Under the pieces are notes generated by a model. That model saw nothing but the letters and a program-made list of their open reading frames with translations. It was not told where the DNA came from and ran no database searches. This document shows positions 1 to 49,665 of a stretch of DNA of 64,000 bases, in pieces (position 1 is the stretch's first letter; each line of letters opens with the position of its first letter). The stretch covers positions 161 to 64,160 of the forward strand of contig DATLZO010000019.1 in the NCBI GenBank assembly GCA_035573955.1, read 5' to 3'. The position numbers and the translations under genes are program-made. The DNA is from Minisyncoccota bacterium (lineage in GTDB: Bacteria; Patescibacteriota; Minisyncoccia; UBA6257; GWB1-50-10).

Positions 1-199
1 GGCCTGTTTTTGGTTGGTGCAGTATTCTTAAATTAGTCCAAACGCATTTTAGCGAGAACCCCCCGCGAATTCAGAAACGGCTTAGGCCTTATTTTTAAAC
101 AAGAGATATAACTAGAAACACGGTCAAAAAGCGAGATTTTACGCTTGTTTTTAGCCATCCGTATGGTAAAATTAAAGAGCCCCAAGCCTGGGCTTTTTT

Positions 200-2131: not shown

Positions 2132-2158
2132 ACCGCAAATCAAGCAGAATAAGACAAT

Positions 2159-2344: not shown

Positions 2345-2347
2345 AAC

Positions 2348-2887
2348 ATGACTGAGGCTAAGAACAGGCATTGGTACGCTATCCACACTTACGCCGGCTA
2401 CGAGGATGCTGTTTCCCGCTACCTAAAGCAGCGGATAGAGTCACTTGCAATGACAGATAAGATATTCAACGTCATTGTGCCGAAAGAGGTAAAGATAAAA
2501 GTAAAGAGCGGCAAGCGGCACAAAGTGGAGGAGAAGATTTACCCCGGTTACGTCCTGGTGGATATGGTGCTCGACAATGATTCCTGGTACGTCGTCCGCA
2601 ACACGCCGCGCGTCACCGGTTTCGTTGGCGCATCAGCTGCTAAACCCGCTCCACTCTCCAAGGAAGAGGTGGACGAGCTTATGGCCCGGATGGGCGAGGC
2701 CGAGCCTCGTTTCAAGCTTGACTTGAAAGTCGGCGAGACTGTAAAAATCATTGACGGTCCCTTTAAGGATCATGACGGGAAAATCGCCGAATTGGACGAC
2801 GAGAGGGGAAAGGTGAAGGTTCTTGTGCCGGTCTTTGGTCGCGACACAATGGTGGAGCTCGATACGCTCCAAGTTCAGAAAATATGA
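2348..2887 (+). CDS. nusG: transcription termination/antitermination factor NusG
   Basis: NGN domain ([11 protein letters not shown]) plus C-terminal KOW ([18 protein letters not shown]); secE-nusG-rplK synteny. Confidence 0.9.
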
Positions 2888-2891
2888 AACA

Positions 2892-3314
2892 ATGGCTAAA
2901 CCTATAAAAACTGTTTTAAAGCTTCAACTGCCGGCTGGAGCGGCCAATCCTGCTCCACCCGTGGGTACCGCTTTAGGTCCCCACGGCGTGAATATCGGTC
3001 TTTTCTGCCAGCAGTTTAACGAGGCGACGAAAGCGATGGCCGGCGATATCATTCCGGCGGAGATTACGATCTATGAAGACCGGAGTTTTGATTTTAAACT
3101 GAAGACCCCTCCCGCTTCAGCTCTTTTAAAGAAAGCTGCTGGCATCGAGAAGGGATCGGCCGAACCGCACAAGACTAAAGTGGGTAAGGTGACGAAGGCA
3201 CAAATCCGCGAGATAGCTGAGAAGAAAATGGCGGACCTAAACGCAGCGACTATAGAAGCTGCCGAAAAGATAATCGAAGGAACTGCAAGGAACATGGGCA
3301 TCACCGTTGAGTGA
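2892..3314 (+). CDS. rplK: 50S ribosomal protein L11
   Basis: [34 protein letters not shown]; start trimmed from ORF-track 2823 to the ATG at 2892. Confidence 0.92.
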
Positions 3315-4173
3315 TGCCCATGTTAGTATTAAGGGGTTTATGAAGCAGTATCTTGACGTACTCAGAGAAATTCTTGAGCGCGGTGTAGATAGGCCGAACC
3401 GAACCGGCATTGATTCACGGGCGATTTTTCTGAAACCGATGCGTTTCGACATGCGGGAAGGATTCCCCGCAGTGACGACGAAAAAACTTGCGTTCAATGC
3501 GGTGAAATCAGAGCTTTTATGGTTTCTCGAAGGCAGTTCGGATGACAATCGCTTGAAGGAACTTGTCGGCAGCGACAAAACCATTTGGACTGCCAATGCT
3601 CAATCCGATTATTGGAAGCCGAAAGCGAAGTTTAATGGAGACCTAGGCAGAATTTATGGCGTGCAATGGCGTTCGTGGCGCGCTCCCGACGGTAGGGAAA
3701 TAGATCAGATTGCAGAAGTTATTGAAAAAATAAAAAAGAGTCCTTATGACCGCCGCCTCATTGTTACTGCTTGGAATCCCGGCGAGCTTGATCAGATGGC
3801 TCTTCCTCCCTGTCATATGTTTTACCAGTTTTTTGTGACGCCTCAAAAAGAGCTTGACCTTGCCATGTATCAGCGAAGCTGCGATATGTTCCTCGGCGTG
3901 CCTTTCAATATCGCATCTTATGCGCTTCTCCTCCACATGGTGGCGCATGTTACGAGTCTTACGCCGCGCGAGCTTATTCTTGTTCTTGCCGACGCTCATA
4001 TTTATCACAACCATTTCAAACAAGTTAAAGAACAGCTAGAGCGTGAGCCTTTTCCTCTTCCAAAACTTTGGCTTAACCCGGAGGTGAAAGATATAGACGA
4101 GTTTGAACTGGATGATATCAAACTTGTTGATTATAAATATCATCCGCCCATAAAAGCAGAAATGGCCGTTTGA
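3307..4173 (+). CDS. thyA: thymidylate synthase
   Basis: [38 protein letters not shown] active-site region; MKQYL alternative start at 3340. Confidence 0.92.
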
Positions 4174-4187
4174 AGACGGGAATAAAG

Positions 4188-4697
4188 ATGATCATTTCCA
4201 TCATCGTGGCAATGGATAAGAGAGGCGTTATCGGCAAGGATTCGAAAGGCCTGCCGTGGCATTTGCCTGCCGATCTCAAACATTTCAAGGAAGTTACCGC
4301 CGGCAAGCCGGTTATAATGGGGCGGGTGACATTCAATACTATTGGGAAACCGCTTCCCGGCAGGCGGAATATTGTTATGACGCGCGACACCGATTTTTCC
4401 GCCCAAGGCGTTGAAGTAGTGAATGGGGTAGACGAAGTGTTAGAAAAAGTGAGAGATGCGGAAGAAGTGATGGTTATCGGCGGCGGGAGCGTTTATAAAC
4501 AGTTTTTGCCGCTCGCAAACCGTGCCTACATTACCCGTGTTGAAGGGGAGTTTGAAGGAAATGTTTATTTTCCCGAAGTAAACTGGAACGAATGGACGGA
4601 GATTACTCGCGAGCACCACAAGCCGGACGAAGAGAATCCTTATCCTTATATTTTCCTCACTTATGAGAAAAAGAGCTTGAATAGTGCCTTTTCGTAA
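4188..4697 (+). CDS. folA: dihydrofolate reductase
   Basis: MIISIIVAMDKRGVIGKDSKGLPWHLPADLKHFKEVTAGKPVIMGRVTF; classic thyA-folA pairing. Confidence 0.9.
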   Translation: MIISIIVAMDKRGVIGKDSKGLPWHLPADLKHFKEVTAGKPVIMGRVTFNTIGKPLPGRRNIVMTRDTDFSAQGVEVVNGVDEVLEKVRDAEEVMVIGGGSVYKQFLPLANRAYITRVEGEFEGNVYFPEVNWNEWTEITREHHKPDEENPYPYIFLTYEKKSLNSAFS

Positions 4698-4713
4698 CCT
4701 ATAATTCACGCCA

Positions 4714-5262
4714 ATGCTTAAACCGGACCACCATATCAGAAAATTGGCGCGGGCGGGAATGATCGACCCTTTTGAAGAGAAACTCGTCCGCGAAGGAGTG
4801 GTTTCTTACGGGCTTTCTTCTTTCGGTTATGATATTCGTCTTGCCGATGAATTTAAGGTATTCACGAATGTTTATTCAACAATCGTTGACCCCAAAAACT
4901 TTGATCCAAAGAGTTTTATTGAAGCTAAAGGGGATTATTGTCTTATCCCGCCCAATTCTTTTATTCTCTCCCGAAGTTACGAATACATTAAGATGCCGAA
5001 GAACGTCTTTGCGATTTGTCTCGGCAAGTCCACCTACGCCCGCTGCGGGTTGATTGTGAATGTGACGCCGCTCGAGCCGGGTTGGGAAGGCCATATTACG
5101 ATTGAAATTTCCAATACCACCCCTTTACCGGCTAAGGTATATGCCAATGAAGGTATTGCACAGCTTATTTTTCTGGAAGGTGAGGAACAGCCGGAGGTCA
5201 CTTACGATTCCCGAAAAGGGAAGTATCAAGGGCAGCGTGGCATTCAGCCGCCAAAAATCTAA
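4714..5262 (+). CDS. dcd: dCTP deaminase
   Basis: [13 protein letters not shown] and [15 protein letters not shown] motifs of the Dcd/dUTPase fold. Confidence 0.88.
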
Positions 5263-5264
5263 TA

Positions 5265-5960
5265 GTGTCAAAAAAGGGAAAGCTTATCGTAATAGACGGC
5301 ATTGACGGATCAGGAAAGGCTACGCAGACGGCTCTTTTAGAAAAGCGATTGCGGAAAGAAGGCGTCAAAGTTAAGAAAATTGACTTTCCCAGATATTACG
5401 ATAATTTTTTTGGCAAACTCTTGGGGAAGTGTTTAGCCGGTGAATTCGGTGATTTTACAAAAGTGGATTCCCGGATTGCTTCCGTTTTATATGCCGCCGA
5501 TAGATTTGAATCAAGCGGCAGCATGCGAAAATGGCTTTCGGAGGGGTATGTAGTTTTGGCCGACAGATATGTAAGCGCGAATCAAATTCATCAGGGAGGG
5601 AAAATTCATTCTCCGGCCGAAAGGAAAAAGTTTTTAGATTGGCTTGATGTTATGGAGCATGGCGTGTTTGGAATTCCTCGCCCTGATTTAGTGATTTATT
5701 TGGATGTCCCCTATGAGGTAAGCCGGGAATGGCTCAAGAACAAAGTGGCTGGATGGAAAAGGAGGTATTTGAACGGTAGGAAGGATGTAGCAGAAGATAA
5801 CCTGGTTTACTTGCGTGATTCGCGAGCAAGCGCTTTGGATTTAGTGAAAAGGAACAAAAACTGGCATAAAATCACCTGCTGCAAAGGGATGATTTGCATG
5901 CTGCCGGAAGAGATTCACGAAAGAGTTTTCAAATTAGTGATGAGAAAATTGAAGGTTTAG
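5265..5960 (+). CDS. tmk: thymidylate kinase
   Basis: KLIVIDGIDGSGKATQTALL P-loop, DRYVSANQIH LID region. Confidence 0.88.
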   Translation: MSKKGKLIVIDGIDGSGKATQTALLEKRLRKEGVKVKKIDFPRYYDNFFGKLLGKCLAGEFGDFTKVDSRIASVLYAADRFESSGSMRKWLSEGYVVLADRYVSANQIHQGGKIHSPAERKKFLDWLDVMEHGVFGIPRPDLVIYLDVPYEVSREWLKNKVAGWKRRYLNGRKDVAEDNLVYLRDSRASALDLVKRNKNWHKITCCKGMICMLPEEIHERVFKLVMRKLKV

Positions 5961-6528
5961 ATTTTTTGAAAAACAGGACAGCATTTTGCTGTTCCGATCG
6001 ACCGGCGTCGGTTTGTTTGGTGTATCCCTTGAATATAAAGAGGCGGCGGCTTGAACCTCCGTACCTCAAATTCTCCCTTGAAGTGGAGATAAATTTGTGG
6101 AAGACCCAACCGACGGTTAGGTTAAAAATTTCAATGTCGCCGGGAATAAACACCTTGGTTCATCTTTTGTCTCGGCGAGGGTGATAGTTTTATCAATAGT
6201 TACGGCGGTGGGGCGTTCGGAAATACGGTAAAAATGATCTCCAAGAAAACACTATTGCCGTGCGTTTTTTAAACACACGGCGGCGACCGTTCCGGGAAGA
6301 TTCGCCTCCATTTTAAGTTTTGCGACCGACGATGACGACTTTATCCGGCTACGGGAATAAAGGGGGCAAGTCGATTGCCGTCTCGGGAGCACTGCTCGTT
6401 TGTCCGATGAAGCTGTTCACCGTCGCCGTCACGACTAGGGAAATATTGATCATAAATGATTCTTTGTGGAATGCCGTTTGGGTTATTATTCTTTTGGAGT
6501 AGGTATTCAAGTGTTGTAATATTAAATC

Positions 6529-7959
6529 ATGTATCTTCCGACGATAGGCTTGGAAATTCACGTAGAACTGAAGACGAAGACGAAAATGTTCTGCTCTTGT
6601 CCGAACGAACCGGATGAAAAACACCCCAACACGAATGTTTGTCCAATTTGCTTGGGACATCCTGGAACGCTCCCGGTTGCAAACAGAGAGGCGATAATTT
6701 CGGTCGTGAAATTCGGCCTCGCCGTCAATGGGCGCATTGCTGAACATTCGCATTTCGACAGAAAGAGTTATTTCTATCCGGATTTGCCGAAGGGATACCA
6801 AATATCTCAGTACGAACGGCCGCTTGTCGAAGGGGGAACACTCTGCGGCGTGCGTATCCGCCGGGTGCATCTTGAGGAGGATACCGGTCGTCTTCTCCAT
6901 TCTTCAACAGATTCAGGGCAAGCGAATTACTCACTTGTCGATTTTAACCGTGCAGGCGTCCCATTAATGGAACTTGTGACCGAGCCGGATATAAAGAACG
7001 CCGAGGAAGCAGTTGCATTTGCCCGCGAACTTCGCCTTATTCTACGTTATCTCGGTGTTTCGGACGCCGATATGGAAAAGGGGCATATGCGAATAGAGGC
7101 TAACGTGAGTTTGGGCAAGGGGGGAGAGCTCGGCACGAAGGTTGAAGTGAAGAATATTAATTCCTTCAAGGCGGTCCATGATGCTATTGCCTACGAAATA
7201 TCAAGGCAGGAAAAGGCACTGACGGATGGTAAGAAAATACGCCAGGAAACAAGGGGTTGGAACGAGACGGAAGGCGTGACTGAGAGTCAGCGAAGCAAGG
7301 AAGAAGCGCATGATTACCGCTATTTCCCCGAGCCGGATTTACCCCCCCTAGATTTGCGGGAATTTAACATCAAAGAACTGAAAGCAGAAATTCCAGAGTT
7401 GCCTGAGGCGAAACGACAGAGATTTATTGGTGAATACGGATTGAACAAAGAGCAGGTGGAAACACTTGTTGAAGACAAGCGTGCGGCTGATTTCTTTGAG
7501 GAGGCGATAAGCGAATTAAAAGCCAAATTACCAATTACTAATTACCAAACACTATTGAACTATTTCACAAGCGATCTCAAGGGTCTAATGAACGAACACG
7601 GCACGTCAATTGATGACTTACGCATCAAGCCGGAGCACTTGGCGCATTTGGTAGCAATGGTGGGGGGAGAAAAATTGTCCAGCCGTTTGGCTAAAGATTT
7701 GCTAGGGAAAATGTTTGAAACAGGTGAGGACCCGGAGAGTTTGATTGAGTCAGAGAAGATAACTTTCATTTCTGCAGAAGCTGAGCTCCGCGAGGTCGCG
7801 AAAGCGATAATAGATGAGAACCCGAGACCAGTTGAGGATTACCGAAAAGGGAAAACCGCGGCTCTCCAGGCCTTGGTCGGTAGGGCGATGGCTAAGACAA
7901 AGGGTCAGGCCGACCCGGAAGTGTTAGCTAAAGTTCTCAAAGAAATTCTGGAAAAGTAG
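6529..7959 (+). CDS. gatB: Asp-tRNA(Asn)/Glu-tRNA(Gln) amidotransferase subunit B
   Basis: YLPTIGLEIHVELKTKTKMFCSCPNE, FDRKSYFYPDLPKGYQISQ; 476 aa. Confidence 0.93.
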   Translation: MYLPTIGLEIHVELKTKTKMFCSCPNEPDEKHPNTNVCPICLGHPGTLPVANREAIISVVKFGLAVNGRIAEHSHFDRKSYFYPDLPKGYQISQYERPLVEGGTLCGVRIRRVHLEEDTGRLLHSSTDSGQANYSLVDFNRAGVPLMELVTEPDIKNAEEAVAFARELRLILRYLGVSDADMEKGHMRIEANVSLGKGGELGTKVEVKNINSFKAVHDAIAYEISRQEKALTDGKKIRQETRGWNETEGVTESQRSKEEAHDYRYFPEPDLPPLDLREFNIKELKAEIPELPEAKRQRFIGEYGLNKEQVETLVEDKRAADFFEEAISELKAKLPITNYQTLLNYFTSDLKGLMNEHGTSIDDLRIKPEHLAHLVAMVGGEKLSSRLAKDLLGKMFETGEDPESLIESEKITFISAEAELREVAKAIIDENPRPVEDYRKGKTAALQALVGRAMAKTKGQADPEVLAKVLKEILEK

Positions 7960-7991
7960 ATGAAGCATACTTACGTATGCCACCATCGTTT

Positions 7992-8879
7992 TTAATCGAG
8001 AAACATCCTTATTAATTTTTCTGCTTCTCTTTCGTTTTGAACCCAGTGGATGTTGGGTTGCATTTTGAACCAGGTGATTTGGCGGCGGGCGTAGTGACGG
8101 GAATTCTTTTTGATTTCCTCTATCGCTCTCTCTAAAGTGATTTCACCGCGGAGATATGTGAGCAATTCTTTGTAGCCGATGGTATTGCGGAGTGCGTAAG
8201 CATTCTCGCCGTATTTTTTAACCAAATTTTTTACTTCGTTTACCAGTCCCATTTTAATCTGCCCGTCAATTCTTTTCCCAATCCGTTTATAAAGTTCTTT
8301 GCGTGGGATTTTGATTCCGATTTGCAGCGCATCCCAGAGCGGACTGCCCTTCAGGCGTTGTGAAGAGAAGTTGTTCCCAGTTTTTAATATCACTTCAAGC
8401 GCTCTTATCACGCGGCGCTTGTTTTGACCTGTGATCCGCGCTGCTTCGGGATCAAATTCACTGAGCTTGCGCTGAAGCTCTTCGAGCGGTGTCTTTTCCA
8501 ATTTTTCGCGCAAACCTTTATCGATTTTCACCGCCGGTATCTTCAAATTTTCCAGGATGGCCTTGGTGTAAAGACCGGTTCCGCCGACTAGGATCGGTAG
8601 ACGACCCCTTTTCAGTATCTCTCGGATCCTAGCCTCGGCCGCTTTTTTGTGTTTCAGTGCACTCCAAACTGTTTTTGGCGAGACCGTGTCAATGAGAAAT
8701 TGGGGATAACTCGCGTCTTTAGCTGTGCCGATGTCCATTCCTTTATAAATCTGGCGGGAATCGGCGGAAATTAGCTCGCCGCGGAACCTTTTGGCGAGCC
8801 GAATGGCGAGCCCGGTTTTACCCGAGGCGGTGGGGCCCACTATAGCGACAATTTTTGGTTTTTTATCTCGTTTTGACAA
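7992..8879 (-). CDS. miaA: tRNA dimethylallyltransferase
   Basis: IVAIVGPTASGKTGLAIRLAKRF P-loop, ISADSRQIYKGMDIGTAK. Confidence 0.9.
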   Translation of the reverse strand: MSKRDKKPKIVAIVGPTASGKTGLAIRLAKRFRGELISADSRQIYKGMDIGTAKDASYPQFLIDTVSPKTVWSALKHKKAAEARIREILKRGRLPILVGGTGLYTKAILENLKIPAVKIDKGLREKLEKTPLEELQRKLSEFDPEAARITGQNKRRVIRALEVILKTGNNFSSQRLKGSPLWDALQIGIKIPRKELYKRIGKRIDGQIKMGLVNEVKNLVKKYGENAYALRNTIGYKELLTYLRGEITLERAIEEIKKNSRHYARRQITWFKMQPNIHWVQNEREAEKLIRMFLD

Positions 8880-8935
8880 GGGTTTGGTTAAACCATATCA
8901 TTTTAGCGTAGTTCATCACATAAGGAGGTGGGTTA

Positions 8936-9354
8936 TGACGACCCGCAGGATAAGGAAGAAGTGGCGGAAGGAGGATTGGCTCGCGATTGTCGAAGGGATG
9001 ATCGAAGCGGTGGAGCGTTTCACCGGAAAAAAGGTCTTGAACAGCCGGGCGGTCGGGAAAGTCGCCAGTAATTTCCTCCACGGCAAGGACAATCACTTCA
9101 TCATCATGCCCCTCAGTATGGAAGGTGTGCAGAACAGCAACCTTCACTTCTTTTTCGAGCGTTGGCCTTTGAAGGCGACGCTTCAAATGGATGAAGGTTC
9201 CCTGAATTCCAAGGCGCTCGCTGCGGAATTCAAGAATTGCCGTTGTTCCCATCCGGAAATCGAAGTCTGTTTTCGAGAGGCAGGTTACGAGATGATGAAA
9301 AGCGAGCTTGTGTCCAAATCGACGCGGATTCCGCCCATCGCACCAAACTCCTAG
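8936..9354 (+). CDS. hypothetical protein (139 aa) with canonical SD; antiparallel insert between miaA and thrS
   Basis: ATG at 8936 preceded by AAGGAGGTG at 5-nt spacing; moderately GC-rich; own terminator downstream; no family recognised. Confidence 0.5.
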
Positions 9355-9360
9355 CACGAG

Positions 9361-9400
9361 GCCGAGCACCTGGAGAATGCCCGGCCTCTTCATTTTTCTA
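9361..9400 (+). terminator. rho-independent terminator for the 8936-9354 gene
   Basis: GAGGCCG...CGGCCTC stem followed by TTCATTTTT; overlaps the convergent thrS stop. Confidence 0.4.
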
Positions 9401-11143
9401 TGACCGCGTGGCTGTTTCTTTTGCGATGCGGTTCAAAAAATTCTCGATACCTACCTTCATGTTTGTCTTGTTGTGCCTTTCGCGGACACTCAAAATCTTT
9501 TCTTTCATTTCTTTTTCGCCGACTACGACGATGTAGGGAATCTTTTCCAATTCCGCTTGCCTCACGTTTTTGCCGAGCGTTTCACTCTCCGGTGCGAGGT
9601 CTGCCCTGATGTTTTTTTCTTGGAAGAGTTTCAGAAGTTTCTTTGCGTAGTCGCCGGATTTTTCGGAAACCGGAACGACGCGAACCTGAATTGGTGCAAG
9701 CCAGACCGGAAATTCTCCGGCATAGTGCTCAATAAGGACAGAAAGAAACCGCTCGATAGAACCCATGATGGCGGCGTGGATCATTACGATGCGTTCCTTC
9801 GCGCCCTTTTCATTTATGCAGGTTAGGTCGAATCGCTCCGGCATGTTCATGTCGAGCTGGATCGTGGCAACCTGCCATTCGCGCCCTAGCGAGTCCTTCG
9901 CCATGAAGTCGAGCTTCGGGCCGTAGAAGGCGGCTTCACCCACAGCTTCCACGCATTTCACCCGGCGGAATTTCACAACCTTACGAAGGATATCCTCCGC
10001 CTCTTTCCATAGTTTCTTATCACCGAGGTATTTATCCGGCTGTTTTGGGTCGTGGAGCGATAATCGGAGGGTGAGCTTCAGGCCAAATGTCTCGTAGAAT
10101 TCTTTTACAATATCCCAAATCTTGAGAAATTCTTCCTTTGCCTGGGCCATGCGGCAGAAGACGTGAGCGTCGTCCTGGGTGAAGCTTCGTGCTCGGGAGA
10201 GACCTGCGAGTTCTCCAGTTTGTTCGTCGCGGTAGCACATGGTGGTGTTCGAATAGCGCTGAGGCAGTTCGCGGTAGCTCCATTGCCGGCGGGCGTAGAT
10301 CTGCGTATGGTGAGGACAGTTCATCGGTTTCATGGCGAAAAGATGTCCCTCGCGCGTCGTTATCTTGAAAAGTTCGTCTTTGAACTTGGCCCAATGTCCG
10401 CTTTTCTCATAAAGATCCTTCTTAGTTATATGAGGAATTTCTACGCGTTCATAGCCGCGCGCGCGTCTCAGCTGCCAGACGAAATCATCAAGCAGGTTCC
10501 GGAGGAGTGTGCCTTTTGGCGTCCAAAGAGGGAGCCCTGCGCCGACCAGGTCGGAGAAAGTGAAAAGGTCGAGTTCGGGGCCGAGTTTCTTATGGTCCCG
10601 TTTCCTCGTTTCCTCGAGCATCGTAAGATGTGCTTCAAGCTCCTTTTTCGTGCCAAAAGCAAGGCCGTAGATTCTCGTGAGTTGAGGGTTTTTTTCGTCG
10701 CCGCGCCAATAGGCGCCGGCGATGTGTGAGAGTTTGAATGCGTCAGTTTTTATTTCGCTGGTCGATTTCACATGTCCGCCGCGGCAGAGATCGGCAAAGA
10801 CGTCACCGGTTCTGTAAATCGTTAGTTTTTTCCCTTCTGCCGCGAAATCTCTGATGAGGTCCAGTTTGAACGGCTGATCGGCGAATAATTTTTTAACCTC
10901 GGCTGCCGTGACCTGCTCTCCCTTAAATGGCAGTTTTCTCTTTATAAGGTCCCGCATTATTTTTTCCAGATCTTTCAGATCTTCTGGCGATAGTGAGTGA
11001 GGGAGCAAGAAATCGTAATAGAAGCCGTTTTCGATGGTCGGACCGATGCCGAGTTTCGCATCAGGGAATTTTTTCAAAACTGCGGCAGCCAAGAGATGGG
11101 CGAGCGAATGGCGGACGTTCTCGATGTTTTGCATGATTTTCAT
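9398..11143 (-). CDS. thrS: threonyl-tRNA synthetase
   Basis: TGS/editing N-terminus, class II motifs, C-terminal anticodon-binding domain; start trimmed to MKIM at 11143 to avoid dnaE overlap. Confidence 0.92.
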   Translation of the reverse strand: MKIMQNIENVRHSLAHLLAAAVLKKFPDAKLGIGPTIENGFYYDFLLPHSLSPEDLKDLEKIMRDLIKRKLPFKGEQVTAAEVKKLFADQPFKLDLIRDFAAEGKKLTIYRTGDVFADLCRGGHVKSTSEIKTDAFKLSHIAGAYWRGDEKNPQLTRIYGLAFGTKKELEAHLTMLEETRKRDHKKLGPELDLFTFSDLVGAGLPLWTPKGTLLRNLLDDFVWQLRRARGYERVEIPHITKKDLYEKSGHWAKFKDELFKITTREGHLFAMKPMNCPHHTQIYARRQWSYRELPQRYSNTTMCYRDEQTGELAGLSRARSFTQDDAHVFCRMAQAKEEFLKIWDIVKEFYETFGLKLTLRLSLHDPKQPDKYLGDKKLWKEAEDILRKVVKFRRVKCVEAVGEAAFYGPKLDFMAKDSLGREWQVATIQLDMNMPERFDLTCINEKGAKERIVMIHAAIMGSIERFLSVLIEHYAGEFPVWLAPIQVRVVPVSEKSGDYAKKLLKLFQEKNIRADLAPESETLGKNVRQAELEKIPYIVVVGEKEMKEKILSVRERHNKTNMKVGIENFLNRIAKETATRS

Positions 11144-19645: not shown

Positions 19646-21397
19646 ATGAACTCGGAAACAAAAACCTGCCAGAATTGTAAGCAATCTTTTAAGATTGAGG
19701 CGGACGACTTTAATTTTTACGAAAAAATTAATGTTCCGCCGCCGACGTGGTGTCCCAACTGCCGGGCGCAGCGGAGATTGATTTTCCGCAACGAGCGAAC
19801 CCTATATAGAAGAAAATGCGACCTCTGCGGTAAAGATATCATTTCAATTTTCCATAAAGATAGCCCGCAGACCGTTTACTGCCAGCCATGTTGGTGGTCG
19901 GACAAGTGGGATCCGACTTCATACAGTCGCGATTACGATTTCTCTCGTCCGTTTTTCGAACAGTTCCTCGAGTTATACCGGAAAGTACCGTTGCCGGCAC
20001 TCTCCACTTTTTATACGACTTTAGTGAACAGTGAATATGTCAATCAAGCCGGATATATGAAGAATTGCTACCTCCTCTTTGATTCGGACTACGACGAGAA
20101 CTGCGCTTATGGAACGGAGGTTGAGCACAGTCATGATTGTTTTGATTGCCTGATGATAAACGGCTGTAGCCTTGCTTATGAGTGTGTTAACTGCCAGAAG
20201 TGTTACGAGATTTTTTACTCTATGGATTGCGATAACTCACATCACGTCTGGTTTTCCCGAGATCTTATCGGCTGCTCTTACTGTTTCGGTTGCACGAATT
20301 TGAGAAACAAGCAGTATCATATTTTCAACAAGCCTTACTCGAAGGAAGAGTATGAGAGAGAAATAAAGCGGCTAAGTCCCAATTCCAAAGAGAAAGTTCT
20401 GGAGATGAAAGAAAAAGTCGAAGAGTTCTTTCTTACTTTCCCACGTAAGTACATTCGCGGTCGGCAAAACACCAACGTTTCGGGCGATTATATCCATCAT
20501 TCCAAGGAAGTGTTCAATTCTTACATCGTTACCGAAGCACAGAATTGCAAGTATTGCATGTGGTTAATCGTGAAACCCATAAAAGACTGCTGGGATTACG
20601 CGGGGTTTGGCAACAACGCCCAGAATATGTATGAAAACATGAATTGCGGCCAAGATGTAAGCGATATTAGTTTTTCGTCGTTTGTATTTATATCTTCTTC
20701 TCGCATTAAATACTCGATATTTTGTTATTCTTCTCAAGACCTATTCGGCTGTGTCGGTCTGCGTCGAAAATCTTACTACATCTTCAATAAAGAATACTCT
20801 AAAGAAGACTATGAAAAGCTTGTTCCTCAAATAATTGAGCATATGAATAAAATGCCCTATACCGACGGTAAGGGGAGGGTTTACAAGTACGGAGAATTCT
20901 TCCCGCCTGATCTTTCACCTTTCGCTTATAACGAAACGACGGCGATAGAGTATTTTCCGCTGACCGAAACGGAGGTTCTAGAGAATGGTTACAGTTGGAA
21001 GGAAACTGAGAAACGCGACTACAAAGTAACAACTGTTGGACCAGAACTCGAGTGGGTCATAGGCTGCGAGCACGGCGGCAAGTGCAATCATAATTGTACG
21101 ACTGCCTTTAAATTGATACCCCAAGAACTGCAATTTTATAAGAGGATGAATATTCCTTTGCCTCAACTTTGTCATAACTGCCGGCATCACGAACGATTGG
21201 GGCAGAGAAATATTTTCAAACTCTCCCATCGGCGGTGTCAGTGCGCAGGTGCAAGTTCGGAGAATAAAGTCTACCAGAACAACCATTCCCACTTCCACGG
21301 TGCCGAACATTGCCCCAACGAATTTGAAACTTCTTATTCCCCTGACCGGAAAGAAATTGTCTACTGCGAACAGTGCTACAACACCGAAGTCGCATAG
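19646..21397 (+). CDS. large cysteine-rich protein, paralog 1 (583 aa), with duplicated terminal zinc-ribbon-like modules
   Basis: N- and C-terminal modules share C..C...F.I...FY.K.N.P.P..C.NCR..RRL.FRN...LY.R.C..C; centre is full of CxxC pairs with an internal repeat LRNKQYHIFNK / LRRKSYYIFNK. Confidence 0.7.
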   Translation: MNSETKTCQNCKQSFKIEADDFNFYEKINVPPPTWCPNCRAQRRLIFRNERTLYRRKCDLCGKDIISIFHKDSPQTVYCQPCWWSDKWDPTSYSRDYDFSRPFFEQFLELYRKVPLPALSTFYTTLVNSEYVNQAGYMKNCYLLFDSDYDENCAYGTEVEHSHDCFDCLMINGCSLAYECVNCQKCYEIFYSMDCDNSHHVWFSRDLIGCSYCFGCTNLRNKQYHIFNKPYSKEEYEREIKRLSPNSKEKVLEMKEKVEEFFLTFPRKYIRGRQNTNVSGDYIHHSKEVFNSYIVTEAQNCKYCMWLIVKPIKDCWDYAGFGNNAQNMYENMNCGQDVSDISFSSFVFISSSRIKYSIFCYSSQDLFGCVGLRRKSYYIFNKEYSKEDYEKLVPQIIEHMNKMPYTDGKGRVYKYGEFFPPDLSPFAYNETTAIEYFPLTETEVLENGYSWKETEKRDYKVTTVGPELEWVIGCEHGGKCNHNCTTAFKLIPQELQFYKRMNIPLPQLCHNCRHHERLGQRNIFKLSHRRCQCAGASSENKVYQNNHSHFHGAEHCPNEFETSYSPDRKEIVYCEQCYNTEVA

Positions 21398-24182: not shown

Positions 24183-24496
24183 TGTCCTTGCAATTCACTC
24201 TAGAAATCTTGATAATGCTGTCTTTGGGGGTTATTCTTTATCTTGCGGCGCGGACGCTGCCGCGTATAGACGATCGGGAAGAAGCTGGTCTCGGTTTCAA
24301 GACGCATTGGTTCGTAGCGCTGCTTGAGCGGGCCGATGAACGGCTTACGGCTGTCCGAGAGAAAATGCTCCGCAGGGCGGGGGTGATGGTTTTAAAGATC
24401 TCGAACGACATTAATTCCCGGCTCGCGAAAATTAAAAAGGTTAACGAAAAAGAAAGCGTTCTCCCTGATATGAGCGGTGAGAACAAGGGGGAATAG
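24182..24496 (+). CDS. hypothetical small membrane protein
   Basis: 104 aa with N-terminal TM helix; no family recognised. Confidence 0.4.
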   Translation: MSLQFTLEILIMLSLGVILYLAARTLPRIDDREEAGLGFKTHWFVALLERADERLTAVREKMLRRAGVMVLKISNDINSRLAKIKKVNEKESVLPDMSGENKGE

Positions 24497-24499
24497 ATC

Positions 24500-24586
24500 G
24501 CGTCGGTGGCAGAGTGGTCAATTGCACTTGACTGTAAATCAAGCGCCCTTCGGGCTACGTAGGTTCGAATCCTACCCGGCGCACCA
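24500..24586 (+). tRNA. tRNA-Tyr (anticodon GTA)
   Basis: manual cloverleaf: acceptor GCGTCGG/CCGGCGC, anticodon loop CTGTAAA, long variable arm, encoded CCA. Confidence 0.85.
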
Positions 24587-24762
24587 GACATGAAAAGTCA
24601 AAGAGTTTTGGTTTGTCTCGCTTCGCTCGACGGCCATTTTGTATTTGGATTTTCGGGGCAAAAACGAATTGGCGATTTTGAAGGAAGAAAAGAAAATTTC
24701 TTAATTATTGATTTTCTGGGATTTTGACTAAAAAACAGAAGAAATGTTGATTTTTGTTGGGA

Positions 24763-24791
24763 TTGACATAAGGCTTTAAATATGCTAGATT
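24763..24791 (+). promoter_or_regulatory. putative promoter TTGACA-17-TAGATT for the GC-rich gene pair
   Basis: read directly. Confidence 0.45.
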
Positions 24792-24863
24792 TTCATTAGT
24801 AAACAATCGAGCTATTGTGGCTTGATTGCAGCACATTTCAACAAGCGAGGAGGTTGCAAAACC

Positions 24864-25148
24864 ATGATGACGATGGCGGTCCGCTATCCGTTCCTGTTTC
24901 TGTTCAGGATCACCGGTCAACTCACTCCGCTCTTCGAGCGCGCGAACTACACGGCGATCGGTTTCTCCGGTCATGTTTCGATGCTCGACGAGGACATTGC
25001 AAAGGAGCGCAAGCTCAAGCCGCTCAACCGCTTCGAGCGATGGCTCTTGAAGCCCATCATCGAGGACGAACAGACGCGGCGTCGCGAGTGCTTCTGGCAA
25101 GCCATCATCGAGGTCACAGGAAAAGGCCCGGACACCGACTGGTCGTGA
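24864..25148 (+). CDS. hypothetical protein (94 aa), GC-rich, SD-bearing
   Basis: GAGGAGG upstream of ATGATGACGATG; local GC clearly above the flanks; long antisense ORFs reflect that GC. Confidence 0.5.
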   Translation: MMTMAVRYPFLFLFRITGQLTPLFERANYTAIGFSGHVSMLDEDIAKERKLKPLNRFERWLLKPIIEDEQTRRRECFWQAIIEVTGKGPDTDWS

Positions 25149-25181
25149 ACGAAATCCAACCAACCACGAAGGAGGCGCTGC

Positions 25182-25430
25182 ATGGCACAGACTGCAACGA
25201 CAGCGACGAAGAACAAGTTCGGGAGCAATCAGTTCCCGATCCACTACGAGGGTGGCTACCTGCGGGTTTACACGAACCCGTCAGGTGAGCTCTTCGTAGA
25301 GGACACCCGTTCAGGTGTCTCGATGCGGATCAATCCGTCTCATCCTGGTGGTCTCCAGTTCACCACCGATGGCCGGGTCGAGCCCATCCGAGTCACCAAC
25401 ACGATCGGGTGGTGTGTCGAACGTCGCTAG
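25182..25430 (+). CDS. hypothetical protein (82 aa), GC-rich, SD-bearing
   Basis: AAGGAGG-7 nt-ATG; followed by a terminator. Confidence 0.55.
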   Translation: MAQTATTATKNKFGSNQFPIHYEGGYLRVYTNPSGELFVEDTRSGVSMRINPSHPGGLQFTTDGRVEPIRVTNTIGWCVERR

Positions 25431-25454
25431 ACTAACGAGCTTCGCGCTCGGTCA

Positions 25455-25497
25455 GAACCCACCATGTCACAAGACCTCTGGTGGGTTTCTTATTTTT
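25455..25497 (+). terminator. rho-independent terminator
   Basis: AACCCACCA...TGGTGGGTT stem followed by TCTTATTTTT. Confidence 0.55.
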
Positions 25498-25756
25498 GAT
25501 TTATTCCATTATTTTTATATAATGCATTTGTATTCGCTTCGCGAATTCTGAATTAGTTGCCGCCAAAGAAAAATTGGAGATTGTTAGATCTCGCGGCGAA
25601 GCCGCACCAAAATTCGCAGGTGGTTCCTCGCCGCCGCAGGCGGCGAAAACGGTTCACGCTATTTCAAGAATAGAGCACATCGCCACCAGCACGCTCTGCG
25701 TGAGGTGGCACCACTCGGAATAAATGATATCCTACGGTATAATTTATTCCTCGCTT

Positions 25757-25831
25757 GCCACCTTAGCTCAGCGGTAGAGCAACTGTTTTGTAAACAGTAG
25801 GTCCTCGGTTCAAATCCGAGAGGTGGCTCCA
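25757..25831 (+). tRNA. tRNA-Thr (anticodon TGT)
   Basis: manual fold: acceptor GCCACCT/AGGTGGC, anticodon loop TTTGTAA, T-arm CTCGG-TTCAAAT-CCGAG, CCA encoded; TGgTATAAT-like -10 about 15 nt upstream. Confidence 0.85.
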
Positions 25832-25839
25832 AAAGCGAC

Positions 25840-25912
25840 GCCAGAGTAGCTCAGTCGGCAGAGCACATCCATGGTAAGGATGGGGTCGGGAGTTCGATTC
25901 TCCCCTCTGGCT
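25840..25912 (+). tRNA. tRNA-Thr (anticodon GGT)
   Basis: acceptor GCCAGAG/CTCTGGC, anticodon loop ATGGTAA, T-arm GGGAG-TTCGATT-CTCCC; CCA not encoded. Confidence 0.85.
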
Positions 25913-25952
25913 CAAAATTGATTTTTAGTCGCGGATTATCTATCCTATTATC

Positions 25953-26123
25953 GTGGCTCAATCAAAACTCAAGGAAAATCTAGTTAGGCTGAAGTGCACG
26001 GTTTGCAACCGGGTGAATTATTTCACGCGCAAGAACAAGAAACAGGTGGAGAGGAAATTGGAATACCGTAAATTCTGTACGTGGTGTAGGAAACATCAGT
26101 TGCATAAGGAAGCGAAAAAATAA
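25953..26123 (+). CDS. rpmG: 50S ribosomal protein L33 (GTG start; absent from the ORF track)
   Basis: translation VAQSKLKENLVRLKCTVCNRVNYFTRKNKKQVERKLEYRKFCTWCRKHQLHKEAKK; L33 zinc ribbon CxxC...CxxC. Confidence 0.75.
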   Translation: MAQSKLKENLVRLKCTVCNRVNYFTRKNKKQVERKLEYRKFCTWCRKHQLHKEAKK

Positions 26124-26197
26124 GGGGTCATAGTTCAATGGCAGAACGTCGGTCTCCAAAACCGATAATGGGGGTTCAACTCCCTCTGACCCCGCCA
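26124..26197 (+). tRNA. tRNA-Trp (anticodon CCA)
   Basis: acceptor GGGGTCA/TGACCCC, anticodon loop CTCCAAA, CCA encoded; classic rpmG/tRNA-Trp neighbourhood. Confidence 0.85.
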
Positions 26198-26247
26198 GTT
26201 AAATTTATTAGGGTTTTTATTGACTAATTCGCACGAATTAGCCGGTG

Positions 26248-26276
26248 TTGACGTTTATAATTTAATCTGATATAAT
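26248..26276 (+). promoter_or_regulatory. near-consensus promoter TTGACG-17-TATAAT
   Basis: read directly; drives the downstream GC-rich gene region. Confidence 0.5.
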
Positions 26277-26489
26277 TTAGAAAGCACAATTAAGGTTTTC
26301 TTAGTCAAGCTGTTCATCGGTTTCGTTTTTATTTATCTGGGTGTTCTCTTGCTGCTGGTAGCTATCGTGGGTGTTCTTCTACTGACACGGCGGTATCTCC
26401 AGTGGCGTGGAGAGCAGAAGATAATGAAAATGGCCAGTCTCCTGTTGTTTTCTCCAGCTAAGGAAGCCATAACGTACAAGGAGGATGCA

Positions 26490-27059
26490 ATGCAGCTCAA
26501 GAAGCGGATTAAGGCGCTCTTCAGTAGCAGTAGCGCCGAGAAGTTGCTCGCGGCACTCATGCCCGCGCTGCGGGAACTCCGAGCTAACCTGCGCTCGGTG
26601 GAATTCTCCAGGGACCCGCTCGCGGACATCATCCGATTTTTCAACTTCGTGTCTCCGTGGCAGGATCGCGGGCTCCGCGATGTGATCGCGGCCTTCAGAG
26701 ACGTGAACTACGGCCAGTACGACGATGTGCTCGAGAAGCTCAAGACGCTCCAACTGCACTTCGAGCGCGCGGGTCGGAGCAAGTACGGTTGGAATAGAAC
26801 CAAGCCCGGCGAGACCGTGACCGAGGACAACGTCTATCTCGGGAACATCTTCGGTCTCTGGACCAAGACCGTGCGGTTCTGGAAGGAGAGGAAGAACGAG
26901 CCGAAGGGCGGTTGGGGATTCTCTGGTATGGAGCACCTCAACCCCTACGACGTCGTCTCGGAGCAGGCCCGGAAGTATATGGAGACCCACATCGGTCCGA
27001 TGTGGGAGCTCATCACGGGACTCGACCAGCACGTGAGGCAGCGAGTCAGGGCCGCGTAG
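26490..27059 (+). CDS. hypothetical protein (189 aa), GC-rich, SD-bearing; possible N-terminal extension to 26349
   Basis: AAGGAGG-5 nt-ATG at 26490; protein-like composition on + strand, whereas the overlapping 230-aa minus ORF looks like GC-driven antisense. Confidence 0.5.
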   Translation: MQLKKRIKALFSSSSAEKLLAALMPALRELRANLRSVEFSRDPLADIIRFFNFVSPWQDRGLRDVIAAFRDVNYGQYDDVLEKLKTLQLHFERAGRSKYGWNRTKPGETVTEDNVYLGNIFGLWTKTVRFWKERKNEPKGGWGFSGMEHLNPYDVVSEQARKYMETHIGPMWELITGLDQHVRQRVRAA

Positions 27060-27084
27060 TTGTATCACCACCTTTCAAGCGAAC

Positions 27085-27127
27085 AAGGGGCTATCCGAAA
27101 GCATTCGGACGGCCCCTTTCGTTTTTT
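27085..27127 (+). terminator. rho-independent terminator
   Basis: AAGGGGC-TATCCGAAAGCATTCGGACG-GCCCCTT then TCGTTTTTT. Confidence 0.6.
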
Positions 27128-27156
27128 GGCCGACGTGTTAAATTAAAGGTGACAAT

Positions 27157-28140
27157 ATGCCTCAAACTCCTAAAAAACTTCGGGTGGCGGTTTTGATGGG
27201 CGGGCCTTCGGCCGAGCATGAGGTTTCCTTAAAAAGCGGCAAAATGGTTTTGGATGCCCTGCCGCGCGATAAATACGAAGTAAAAAAAGTTTTTATAGAC
27301 AAAGATGGCGTCTGGGAAATTCCTCCATCCGAGTTGAAGAAGAACGTAGATGCCGTGTTTATTGCCCTTCACGGGACCTACGGTGAGGACGGTGTCGTCC
27401 AAGACATTTTGGATGCGGAAGGGATTCCATATACTGGTTCCGGCGCGAAAGAGAGCGCGCTTTCCATGAACAAATATCTCCTGACACGGCTTCTGAAAGA
27501 GGAAGGGTTCAGTGTCCCGCGGACGGAACTCGTCACCGTCGCCGACTGGCGCATGAAGCCTTCTGAAATTATCCATAAGATAAGGCACTATTTCGGTTAT
27601 CCGATAGTCGTGAAACCGAACCAGAACGGCTCTTCAGTCGGCGTTTCCATTGTGAGGGGAGAGGAAGGTTTAACTGGTGCTTTTAACGAGGCGTTCCGGG
27701 TTGGCCGCGAGGCGCTTGTCCAGGAATTCATCGTTGGCCGAGAAATGACCTGCGGTGTTATCGATTCCGGTTTCGTAGGGAGCGAGTTCGCTCTTTTACC
27801 TACAGAAATAGTGCCGAGAGTGAGCGACTTCTTTGATTATCGTGCAAAATACGAACCCGGCGCCTCCGATGAGATAACGCCGCCGGATTGCCCTGGCCAT
27901 ATTCAAAAAAAGATCCAGAACACAGCAAAATCGGTTCATAAGCTCGCCGGTTGCCGCGGTTTTTCCCGCGTTGATATGATCCTCGCGAAGAACAGCGAGA
28001 TATTTGTTCTGGAGATAAACACTATTCCGGGGCTCACGGAGCAAAGCTTACTGCCCAAAGCGGCTCTCGCTTCCGGCATCGCCTTTCCGGAACTTCTCAG
28101 CAGAATTGTTTCCGCCGCTTTCATTACTGTGAAAATCTGA
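27157..28140 (+). CDS. ddl: D-alanine--D-alanine ligase
   Basis: LRVAVLMGGPSAEHEVSLKSG, IALHGTYGEDGVVQDILDAEGIPYTGSG, ATP-grasp C-terminus. Confidence 0.9.
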   Translation: MPQTPKKLRVAVLMGGPSAEHEVSLKSGKMVLDALPRDKYEVKKVFIDKDGVWEIPPSELKKNVDAVFIALHGTYGEDGVVQDILDAEGIPYTGSGAKESALSMNKYLLTRLLKEEGFSVPRTELVTVADWRMKPSEIIHKIRHYFGYPIVVKPNQNGSSVGVSIVRGEEGLTGAFNEAFRVGREALVQEFIVGREMTCGVIDSGFVGSEFALLPTEIVPRVSDFFDYRAKYEPGASDEITPPDCPGHIQKKIQNTAKSVHKLAGCRGFSRVDMILAKNSEIFVLEINTIPGLTEQSLLPKAALASGIAFPELLSRIVSAAFITVKI

Positions 28141-44931: not shown

Positions 44932-45429
44932 TTATAAAAGCCATTTCCACGGTTTCCTCCTACTTTTATATTTTTCCATTTCCGACTTTATTTTCTGTAA
45001 TTTCTTTAAGTCAGTATCATTCCAGTTCACCTTAGAGAATTTTTTCTCTCCTGGAATTCTTGTTTGTCTGTTTCTTTGTAGGATGTTTAGAGCCTCTTTC
45101 CATAATACATAGTCGTATTTCTTTTTAGCTCTTAAAACGTGGTTATCAAAAAATGGTACTACTTTCTCTACGAGATCGTTCAAGTTATTTATCTGGAGCC
45201 TCGCTTGACCGTTTCTATTGAAAATGATGCCGCAGCTTAAGGTTTGTTTGATATTTTCTAGTATTTCTTTGTCATCATCACGCAACACTATAGCAAATCC
45301 TATTTTCCAATAAAAATAGACCGGCTTATTTTTCCTGTCGTGTCTAACATCGCGTCTGAAATTTATATAAAAACAACCCTCGCCGTCTACAAAGCCGGCA
45401 ATGTAATCACCAGGTAATTTTTCTCCCAC
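44932..45429 (-). CDS. free-standing LAGLIDADG homing endonuclease (single-motif, 165 aa)
   Basis: YIAGFVDGEGCFYI motif; strongly AT-rich compared with the flanking genes. Confidence 0.78.
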   Translation of the reverse strand: MGEKLPGDYIAGFVDGEGCFYINFRRDVRHDRKNKPVYFYWKIGFAIVLRDDDKEILENIKQTLSCGIIFNRNGQARLQINNLNDLVEKVVPFFDNHVLRAKKKYDYVLWKEALNILQRNRQTRIPGEKKFSKVNWNDTDLKKLQKIKSEMEKYKSRRKPWKWLL

Positions 45430-48600: not shown

Positions 48601-49665
48601 TAGGAGTTTTTTAGCGATTTTCTCTGCCGCTTCATGTTTTGAGAAACTTTTAGCGGCTTTTGCCATTGCTTTTGCGATTTTCCCGTTTTTGAGGATTTTT
48701 TCAATTTCGGTTTTCATAGTTTGCCAGTTTAGGTCGCTTTCTTCCACCACCACGGCCGCTCCGGTGGCAGCGTATTCATAGGCATTGGCTTTTTGATGAT
48801 TGCTTGCCGCACCTTCGAGCGGAATTAATATGGAAGGTTTCCCAAAAGCGGCGATTTCAAAAATGGCGCTTGCGCCGGCGCGGGAAATAACGAGGTTGGT
48901 TTTTGACAGCGCTCGCTTTAATTCTGCGGCGTCTAAAAATTTCACTGGGTGGTAGTTTTTGGAAGCACTATAATTAATTATAGCGCCGACATTATTTTCA
49001 CCCGTTTGATGAAGAATGCTCCCCAATTTTAATAATTCTTTAAGGTGCGCGGAGATAAAAGAGTTAATGCAGGCTGCTCCTTGGGAGCCGCCAAGCACCA
49101 AAATAGACACTCTAACATTCTGCAAAATACTGGAATGTTGTGGTTTTGTTGAATCTTTCAGAAGATCGGCGCGAATGGGGTTGCCTATGAGTTCGGTTTT
49201 GTTTTTCGGGAAGTATTTTTCGGCGTTTTTCCAAGCGATGAAGATTTTCTTTGCAAAAATCGCCGAGAGACGGTTCGTGAGTCCCGGTACGGCGTCGGAA
49301 TCATGAATCACAACCGGCACGAAAAAACACCGGGCGGCCAAGACTACCGGGAGCGCCCCCGGTCCGCCTTTGGAAAAGACTAAATCTGGCTGGATGTAGA
49401 AAATATGAGCCAGTGATTGAAAAATACTCCAGAGAAACTTAAAAATGTCGGTAAAGTTCCGCCAGTCAAAATAGCGGCGGAGCTTGCTTGAGACAATCGA
49501 CAGTGTTTCGATGTTTCTTTTTGTAAACTCGACGTTCAAAGGGTGATTCGGGCCAATGTAGTGAAGTTGAACTTCACTAGATTGTTTTTGGATTTCTTCG
49601 GCTACCGCCACAAGCGGAAAAATATGTCCGCCCGTTCCCCCGCCTGTTAGTACAATCTTTTTCAT
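48577..49665 (-). CDS. murG: undecaprenyldiphospho-muramoylpentapeptide beta-N-acetylglucosaminyltransferase
   Basis: KIVLTGGGTGGHIFPLVAVAEE GT28 N-terminus. Confidence 0.9.
   Translation of the reverse strand: MKKIVLTGGGTGGHIFPLVAVAEEIQKQSSEVQLHYIGPNHPLNVEFTKRNIETLSIVSSKLRRYFDWRNFTDIFKFLWSIFQSLAHIFYIQPDLVFSKGGPGALPVVLAARCFFVPVVIHDSDAVPGLTNRLSAIFAKKIFIAWKNAEKYFPKNKTELIGNPIRADLLKDSTKPQHSSILQNVRVSILVLGGSQGAACINSFISAHLKELLKLGSILHQTGENNVGAIINYSASKNYHPVKFLDAAELKRALSKTNLVISRAGASAIFEIAAFGKPSILIPLEGAASNHQKANAYEYAATGAAVVVEESDLNWQTMKTEIEKILKNGKIAKAMAKAAKSFSKHEAAEKIAKKLLNFGGLTS

Follow-up and report, generated by a model that had tools for sequence, protein, structure and literature searches.

Within a 64,000-nt stretch of contig DATLZO010000019.1 from the metagenome-assembled genome of a Minisyncoccota bacterium (Candidatus Paceibacterota, Parcubacteria) (the window, here always the whole of that stretch), two short islets of small genes lie directly behind tRNA genes: islet 1, with genes A and B, follows tRNA-Tyr, and islet 2, with gene C, follows tRNA-Trp. 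Both islets are probably stranded, integrase-less cargo, or satellite-like derivatives, of elements of Paceibacteria, members of the Candidate Phyla Radiation (CPR), that target tRNA ends with a large serine recombinase (LSR). The cassettes have a common anatomy: each brings a sigma-70 promoter of its own, a 5' leader that is conserved, a strong Shine-Dalgarno (SD) sequence and between one and three small genes, closed by an intrinsic terminator. A stump of an LSR gene stands at the tRNA-Tyr junction, near-identical copies of the cassettes are found elsewhere, these copies are associated with tRNA genes, and the cargo genes contrast with their surroundings in both composition and SD use. Islet 1 has kept the integrase stump and an end element, whereas islet 2 seems to have lost both and is assigned to this class through homologues that retain them.

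The order of genes at the locus is tsf, a 104-amino-acid open reading frame (ORF), tRNA-Tyr, islet 1, two tRNA-Thr genes, rpmG, tRNA-Trp, islet 2 and ddl. Islet 1 begins at 24587, one base past tRNA-Tyr, and runs from an antisense LSR stump (element Y) through the promoter, leader, A, B and terminator to element X, which is followed by the first host tRNA-Thr. Islet 2 begins after tRNA-Trp and is a one-gene cassette whose recognisable end sequences have been lost. The features are given below, with GC3 denoting the GC fraction at third codon positions and att an attachment site.

24500-24586 (+): tRNA-Tyr (GTA), found by ARAGORN and Rfam; islet 1 has its left junction (attL side) at the CCA end of this gene
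24587-24705 (-): element Y, the decayed 3' end of an LSR gene with the conserved junction motif GAARGAAGAAAAGAAAA
24763-24791 (+): A-B cassette promoter, TTGACA-17-TAGATT with extended TG (promoter scan)
24798-24863 (+): A-B conserved 5' leader, with a hairpin at 24806-24826 (fold) and SD box GAGGAGGT at 24847-24854
24864-25148 (+): gene A, 94 amino acids, GC3 0.80
25169-25175 (+): gene B SD box, AAGGAGG
25182-25430 (+): gene B, 82 amino acids, GC3 0.71
25455-25499 (+): A-B cassette intrinsic terminator, a hairpin followed by a U-run (z=-3.1)
25531-25697 (+): element X, right end of islet 1 (nhmmer E=1.5e-42)
25757-26197 (+): host backbone between the islets, made up of the next four features
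25757-25831: tRNA-Thr (ARAGORN and Rfam)
25840-25913: second tRNA-Thr (ARAGORN and Rfam)
25953-26123: rpmG, ribosomal protein L33 (Pfam E=8e-17)
26124-26197: tRNA-Trp (ARAGORN and Rfam)
26248-26276 (+): C cassette promoter, TTGACG-17-TATAAT with extended TG (promoter scan)
26284-26489 (+): gene C long 5' leader, with SD box AAGGAGG at 26478-26484
26490-27059 (+): gene C, 189 amino acids, GC3 0.84
27086-27127 (+): C cassette intrinsic terminator, an inverted repeat forming a hairpin followed by a U-run (fold z=-4.4)
27157: start of ddl

The promoters, the terminators and the tRNA/rpmG order had all been proposed in a first-pass annotation made from the sequence alone, and each was recovered here with ARAGORN, Rfam, Pfam, a promoter scan or folding. 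Both terminators were missed by a simple scan because their stems are long or bulged. Rfam searches of 24400-27300 at gathering and permissive thresholds returned nothing besides the tRNAs, and an exact-sequence look-up of rpmG returned no record.

The origin of element Y is apparent from comparison with a Ryanbacteria contig (MHOA01000005, locus L010), where an intact LSR of about 480 amino acids or more is encoded on the minus strand beside A and B. This protein carries Resolvase, Recombinase and Zn_ribbon_recom domains (Pfam E=1e-21, 5e-12 and 1e-6, respectively), has the A118 integrase as a PDB match and shares approximately 26% identity with integrases of Bacillus and Streptococcus phages. 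At a further locus, L017, a second LSR (36% identity over 488 amino acids) with the same Resolvase-Recombinase-zinc-ribbon architecture ends inside tRNA-Phe. As the LSR genes of both loci read antisense into a tRNA, they show the classic layout of an integrated element with its integrase at the att site. The window holds no such three-domain protein, only a stump: positions 24581-24705 form an antisense C-terminal LSR remnant of about 28 codons, the alignment of which enters the last 6 nt of tRNA-Tyr. Within it, the 35 nt at 24645-24679 match nt 1364-1398 of the L010 LSR gene without a mismatch (100%), and the stump peptide FLPRKSKYKMAVERSETNQNSLTFHVWC is 46% identical to LSR residues 461-487, ending in VWC, that is TGGTGC, the antisense of the tRNA's GCACCA. 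The earlier description of the islets as remnants that lack an integrase therefore holds, with the addition that an LSR gene remnant abuts tRNA-Tyr at the place where L010 and L017 have intact LSRs. An extension of the stump by tblastn to 24884 (29% identity, frameshifted and containing a stop) was not relied upon.

Element X also contains recombinase sequence. Its 5' part is derived from LSR nt 93-120, window positions 25558-25585 matching the LSR gene at 96% over 28 nt, and its 3' end in other copies, at four loci, reads ...TTCAAGAATACTGCACCA, which is likely to be the element-side att arm. One X end of L010 abuts Y with no intervening sequence (...CTGCACCA|GACAGG...), a junction that likely represents the attP of a circular form. 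The candidate attP taken from L010 1640-1690 would read ...AATACTGCACCA|GACAGGAAATTGCAAG..., and the joint between the X 3' end and Y in the circular form is predicted to be ...AATACTGCACCA|GACAGGAAATTG.... Copies of X lie in inverted orientation around cargo in L010 and L023. Using nhmmer, Y was found in L010 as well as after tRNA-Lys in L014 and after tRNA-Leu in L016, and Y and/or X flank gene C in L014, L016 and L023. The possibility that X is a tRNA-like non-coding RNA was considered and rejected, as it contains recombinase-gene fragments, has no Rfam match and shows a weak consensus fold (RNAalifold -8.6 kcal/mol, with 2 covarying pairs among 5 copies). A promoter-like sequence, TTGATT-16-TATAAT (25496-25523, plus strand), is situated between the A-B terminator and X and is likewise conserved in L010. 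Transcription of X and of the tRNA-Thr genes behind it could start there; alternatively, the site could be a relic promoter of the lost recombinase. A partial X (...TTTAAGAATACTGCACCA) is also present at the edge of the window, just upstream of gyrB (7-83, minus strand), and may mark another old insertion with its body outside the window.

Genes A and B are 100% identical to NCBI entries VNK70_02390 and VNK70_02395. A has a hydrophobic N-terminus followed by helices, and B is an all-beta meander. In a collection of 5.8 billion proteins, homologous clusters numbered 29 for A (54-87% identity), 33 for B and 35 for C. Searches of the three proteins against Pfam, PHROG and PADLOC gave sub-threshold noise only, and no relative was found among PDB sequences, which bears out the first-pass statement that none resembles a known family.

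Copies of the A-B cassette are found in several lineages. Approximately 24686-25590 of the window aligns with L010 from the promoter through the leader hairpin, the SD, A, the intergenic SD, B and the terminator to the start of X; nucleotide identity of the coding regions is 86-88%, and 0.29-0.34 of four-fold sites differ. The genes flanking A-B are unrelated between the two. A Vogelbacteria copy (L009) has the promoter, leader and A in common with the window, after which an unrelated 65-amino-acid gene follows. A copy in a 'Saccharibacteria' bin (L012) has a matching promoter, leader and terminator enclosing three genes, namely a 59-amino-acid gene, A and B, and sits between tRNA-Ala and tRNA-Ser. 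Four-fold site differences among these copies range from 0.23 to 0.36, and changes at third positions dominate. Because substitutions between copies are concentrated at third codon positions, A, B and C evidently encode proteins under purifying selection. The promoter motif ATATGCTAKAYTT is conserved in L009, L010, L012 and L014, and the A-B leader is more conserved than the coding sequence among the window, L009 and L010. Likewise, the gene B SD box AAGGAGG is conserved in L010, L012 and L040 and the A-B terminator in L010 and L012. Gene A is found alone in L007 and with unrelated partners in L008 and L009. A type II toxin-antitoxin pair was therefore rejected as an identity for A-B, the partners of A being variable or absent and no Pfam or PADLOC match being present. 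The highly similar copies in Ryanbacteria, together with the related ones in Vogelbacteria and the 'Saccharibacteria' bin, all in unrelated neighbourhoods, support the horizontal acquisition suggested at first pass, and A-B and C appear to be cassettes exchangeable between elements and lineages.

Gene C encodes a protein with a confidently predicted fold, a four-helix bundle with a conserved GWNRT...GGWGFSGM loop. A profile search recovered 534 clusters at 50% identity for this unannotated family, and comparison of the profile with PDB sequences produced noise. The member names of the clusters of ten distant C relatives carried no taxonomy. Neither C nor B had a match in IMG/VR, and C had none by tblastn in the GenBank phage and PLSDB plasmid collections. 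The genomes hosting C loci range from 29% to 54% GC, and in 17 of 20 loci C surpasses in GC3 every other ORF up to 6 kb away in both directions, the excess averaging +0.20; in L016 its GC3 is 0.81 against 0.26 for the host. A few copies (L027, L025) have host-level GC3, which we read as the result of amelioration after long residence. The C copies of L014 and L016 are 84% identical in DNA (0.17 of four-fold sites differ), although GC3 of the hosts is 0.45 and 0.26, respectively, and the upstream tRNAs differ. The region they share starts at the SD, spans C and the terminator, and stops exactly at ...AATACTGSACCA (...ACCA). In L014 C stands under an A-type promoter, and the last ~45 nt of the C leader in the window resemble the leader in L014/P0007.

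The C family is sizeable and unannotated, and is worth naming. One homologue (L033, 5947-6507; 35% identity) lies with native composition on an alphaproteobacterium-like contig (cytochrome bc1, hemF, 62% GC), so the family is not confined to CPR bacteria. In L017 a small GIY-YIG-like ORF (5400-5669) is located immediately 5' of the tRNA-Gly that precedes the C homologue, and the interval from C to the LSR at tRNA-Phe holds several further small genes with an SD; the region may represent a composite island of larger size.

Adjacency to tRNA genes, which the first-pass annotation had taken as a sign of horizontal transfer, is a recurrent property of the cassettes. Within the 18 non-redundant C contexts, 10 have a co-oriented tRNA ending at most 1 kb upstream, compared with 10 of 189 other ORFs of these loci (Fisher p=1.7e-7). 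The tRNAs concerned are Trp, Arg-CCG, Lys-UUU, Leu-UAG, Gly-CCC (twice), Leu-UAA, Ile-UAU (twice) and Glu-CUC, so that C homologues occur in many contexts, usually right behind a tRNA. Homologues of A are located behind tRNA-Tyr in the window, tRNA-Lys in L008 and tRNA-Ala in L012.

The composition of the three genes departs from that of the window with a sharp shift over a few hundred bases at the islets. GC3 is 0.80 in A, 0.71 in B and 0.84 in C as opposed to 0.32-0.69 in all other window ORFs (54 background genes), while GC1 and GC2 are ordinary. The higher GC and GC-rich third positions reported at first pass are confirmed in this way, and the long antisense ORFs also noted there are real, although they would be an expected by-product of avoiding TTA, CTA and TCA codons at high GC3. 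An overlapping antisense gene was rejected as the cause of high GC3, as the antisense frames follow trivially from codon choice and some C homologues have host-level GC3.

The contrast in translation initiation is equally clear, as had been claimed for these genes relative to the SD-poor housekeeping genes. A, B and C each have a 7-nt match to AAGGAGGTGA 5-9 nt ahead of the ATG (three of three), whereas a match of at least 7 nt precedes none of the 54 background genes and one of at least 5 nt precedes 13% of them; the rates at random positions are 0.24% and 5%, respectively. A near-consensus TATAAT ends 3-12 nt before the start codon in 24% of background genes versus 2.3% at random (for example at 4714, 6529, 14567, 34913, 41613 and, on the minus strand, 52621-54084). 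Hexamers placed this close to start codons suggest that many genes of the window are transcribed as leaderless mRNAs and that such mRNAs are widespread in this genome. An anti-SD motif has been reported in just 48% of Parcubacteria 16S rRNAs (PMC9297842). Among CPR homologues of C the SD box is kept in 15 of 18, compared with 21% of background ORFs even under generous scoring (p=2e-7), and it is retained in the L027 copy, which has host-level composition, and in the L037 copy, from a 29% GC genome. Since the SD persists in copies whose composition has drifted, it looks like a maintained, functional part of the cassette and not a mere foreign relic.

The recombinase does not share these properties. 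In L010 the LSR has a GC3 of 0.45, against 0.45-0.47 for host genes, and lacks an SD, whereas the adjoining cargo is at 0.82-0.83 and carries strong SDs. To call the element as a whole foreign DNA derived from a GC-rich donor would therefore be an oversimplification. The first-pass interpretation of SD use and composition as a foreign signature stands as far as the contrast itself is concerned, but not in treating the SD as solely a mark of origin, nor can it be extended to the host-like LSR.

Genes of the same style are found outside the two islets. One, at 8935-9354 of the window (plus strand; 139 amino acids, GC3 0.69), lies between miaA and thrS with a 9-nt SD, AAGGAGGTG, and a TTGACA-17-TATCAT promoter; it has no Pfam match and no adjoining tRNA. 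On a hydrocarbon metagenome contig (k127_179054, L044), positions 2133-10249 form an island of at least 8 kb with 16 small co-oriented genes, all with a strong SD and GC3 of 0.5-0.8, one of which is a B homologue. The island adjoins dnaJ genes with a GC3 of 0.26 and no SD. Its genes gave no Pfam matches, and no tRNA or integrase is present within the 10.5 kb examined.

If the islets are indeed stranded cargo of LSR elements, the recombinase would join the element site (X 3' arm ...GCACCA | GACAGG... Y) to the 3' (CCA) ends of tRNA genes, and subsequent deletion of the integrase would leave the cargo behind. Cargo genes would be shuffled among elements as cassettes. Their high GC3 may come from residence in a GC-richer, SD-using gene pool combined with rapid turnover, and older copies would drift to host composition while keeping the SD. 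One guess is that the cargo consists of accessory proteins that benefit the element, for example in exclusion, anti-defence or host interaction.

Several observations weigh against this account. No tRNA-end duplication or direct repeat flanks either islet, the short GCACCA-like X end being the only such sequence, and the att sites are accordingly left as predictions. We attribute the lack of long repeats to the short core of identity that suffices for serine integrases, and their short att sites (PMC1470463) fit that absence. Adjacency to a tRNA 3' end, divergent composition and varied contexts are features of both islets, but the integrase remnant belongs to islet 1; islet 2 has no detectable Y, X or LSR remnant, and its connection to an LSR comes from homologues elsewhere. 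There is no nearby tRNA in 8 of the 18 C contexts. The LSR and cargo of L010 differ in GC3 (0.45 versus 0.82) and in SD use and may be separate adjacent elements, and the locus as a whole looks like nested or tandem insertions that are only partly resolved. The X fragment of the LSR 5' region and the Y fragment point in opposite directions, an arrangement not accounted for by a simple internal deletion. The comparison set contained no sister genomes, and no excised circle, empty site or polymorphism between sister strains was observed in it. Lineage labels of metagenome bins, such as 'Saccharibacteria', may also be wrong.

Some of these points would be accommodated if the cassettes had spread by DNA uptake and homology-facilitated recombination, with the tRNA genes or the X and Y repeats serving as anchors and the LSR fragments being remnants of unrelated insertions at the same hot spot. 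Competence and pilus genes are known from CPR bacteria, and both the window and L010 contain pilin-like genes. Such a route would suit the lack of flanking repeats or clear att duplications, the mosaicism of the cassettes (A with varying partners, C under an A-type promoter), the inverted X copies around cargo in L010 and L023, which look like recombination substrates, and the unlike composition of integrase and cargo. It accounts poorly for the precision of the tRNA junction, followed by the same LSR-derived sequence behind four different tRNA-like ends, and for the LSR ORFs of L010 and L017 that read into tRNAs in the manner of an integrase at its att site. Many independent anchors would also be needed for nine tRNA anticodon types. 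We consider this route unlikely, although it is the only one of the alternatives to which we give appreciable weight. A mobility that passes through RNA is far less probable. Here, tRNA-processing enzymes would free the stretch from tRNA to X, a reverse transcriptase would prime at the CCA-like end and switch template to a tRNA 3' end, and the copy would be fixed beside the tRNA gene, as an analogue of which variants of the Neurospora Mauriceville retroplasmid can be named. The unit does start right behind the tRNA CCA and end in ...TTCAAGAATACTGCACCA in four loci, the insertions are co-oriented with many different tRNAs, and no target duplications are seen. However, no locus has an associated reverse transcriptase, a terminator separates cargo from X, X lacks both a Rfam match and a convincing conserved fold, and the recombinase-gene fragments in X and Y favour a history at the DNA level.

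A native origin, in which A, B and C are vertically inherited small genes that are highly expressed or specially regulated, with GC3 and SD under selection and tRNA adjacency providing co-expression from strong tRNA promoters, is largely refuted and retains very little probability. The conservation of the SD in 15 of 18 C homologues even at host-equal composition, the purifying selection on three conserved protein families and the strong promoter and terminator of each gene would all be expected under it. Neighbourhoods nevertheless differ in essentially every genome, DNA identity of 84-88% is seen between hosts that differ greatly in composition, high GC3 is absent from ribosomal and other strongly expressed genes of the window, an integrase stump stands at the junction, and the host-level GC3 of the L027 and L025 copies means that high GC3 is not required. 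Least credible of all is an artefact of assembly or binning in which GC-rich fragments of another organism were stitched into a CPR contig. The change in composition over a few hundred bases is sharp enough to raise that suspicion, but host tRNAs and rpmG alternate with the islets on a single strand, the same proteins come from independent assemblies (NCBI and Logan), and the architecture recurs in more than 20 independent contigs.

With stranded LSR cargo retained as the favoured explanation, the tycheposons of Prochlorococcus (Hackl et al., bioRxiv 10.1101/2020.12.28.424599) are the nearest published counterpart. In both cases integrative elements with cargo target several tRNA genes at their ends, the host genome is streamlined, and degenerate remnants with fragmented integrases leave cargo stranded beside the tRNA, which seeds an island. 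Tycheposons mostly use tyrosine recombinases (474/501) and have partial-tRNA repeats and replication modules (10.1101/2020.12.28.424599). The islet family differs in having an LSR, stranded units of only ~0.9-1.1 kb and a CPR host, and none of the tycheposon hallmarks (tyrosine recombinase, primase/helicase module, partial-tRNA att repeats) was found in the window or the loci inspected. The LSRs of L010 and L017 have the domain architecture of phage-type large serine integrases of the A118, Bxb1 and phiC31 class, A118 being matched directly. Most known serine integrases insert into protein-coding genes or at unique sites, whereas the LSR genes described here abut and read into tRNA 3' ends, with relatives at several tRNAs. 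No phage structural genes accompany them.

Phage 'morons', in the concept of Hendrix, are self-contained promoter-gene-terminator units of divergent base composition located between prophage genes. The cassettes resemble them in having their own promoter and terminator and a divergent composition, but they sit in the chromosome behind tRNAs; no prophage surrounds them, and searches of PHROG, IMG/VR and GenBank phage sequences gave no phage matches. As for translation, host genes largely without an SD are also known from Bacteroidota and from some Parcubacteria without an anti-SD (PMC9297842). The islet family differs from those systems in that the SD-bearing minority is mobile cargo which retains the SD across hosts; the host 16S rRNA gene lies outside the window.

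Two further features of the window have no connection with the islets. An AT-rich ORF between cell-wall genes (44932-45429, minus strand; GC3 0.38) contains a LAGLIDADG-like motif, GFVDGEGCF, and may be a free-standing homing endonuclease. Two paralogous genes of ~585 amino acids (19646-21397, plus strand; 49662-51437, minus strand) lie 30 kb apart on opposite strands and have near-identical N-termini (…ETKxCQNCKxxFxIExxDFxFYxKIxVPxPTWCPxC…).

CPR bacteria have tiny genomes and are mostly uncultured, and little is known of their mobile elements or of how they gain genes. The locus and its relatives point to a concrete vehicle, namely serine-integrase elements aimed at tRNA ends, and to concrete traffic in the form of ~1-kb promoter-to-terminator cassettes of small proteins moving among Ryanbacteria, Vogelbacteria, other Paceibacterota and possibly Saccharibacteria. 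A more far-reaching proposal, which we put forward speculatively and regard as more doubtful than likely, is that Paceibacteria hold a lineage-spanning pool of portable cassettes on serine-integrase elements that recognise the generic T-arm/acceptor-CCA end of tRNAs and hence land after many of them. In such a pool the strong SD, long leader and GC-rich codons, kept amid largely leaderless, SD-free host mRNAs, might give the cassettes a separate and possibly privileged or conditional route to the ribosome, so that composition and initiation signals would be maintained cargo traits and not fading marks of a donor. The contrast between LSR and cargo, together with the retention of the SD, offers a handle on whether SD-dependent initiation is still in use in CPR bacteria and is exploited by mobile genes, and the LSRs with their predicted att sites could seed genetic tools for CPR bacteria.

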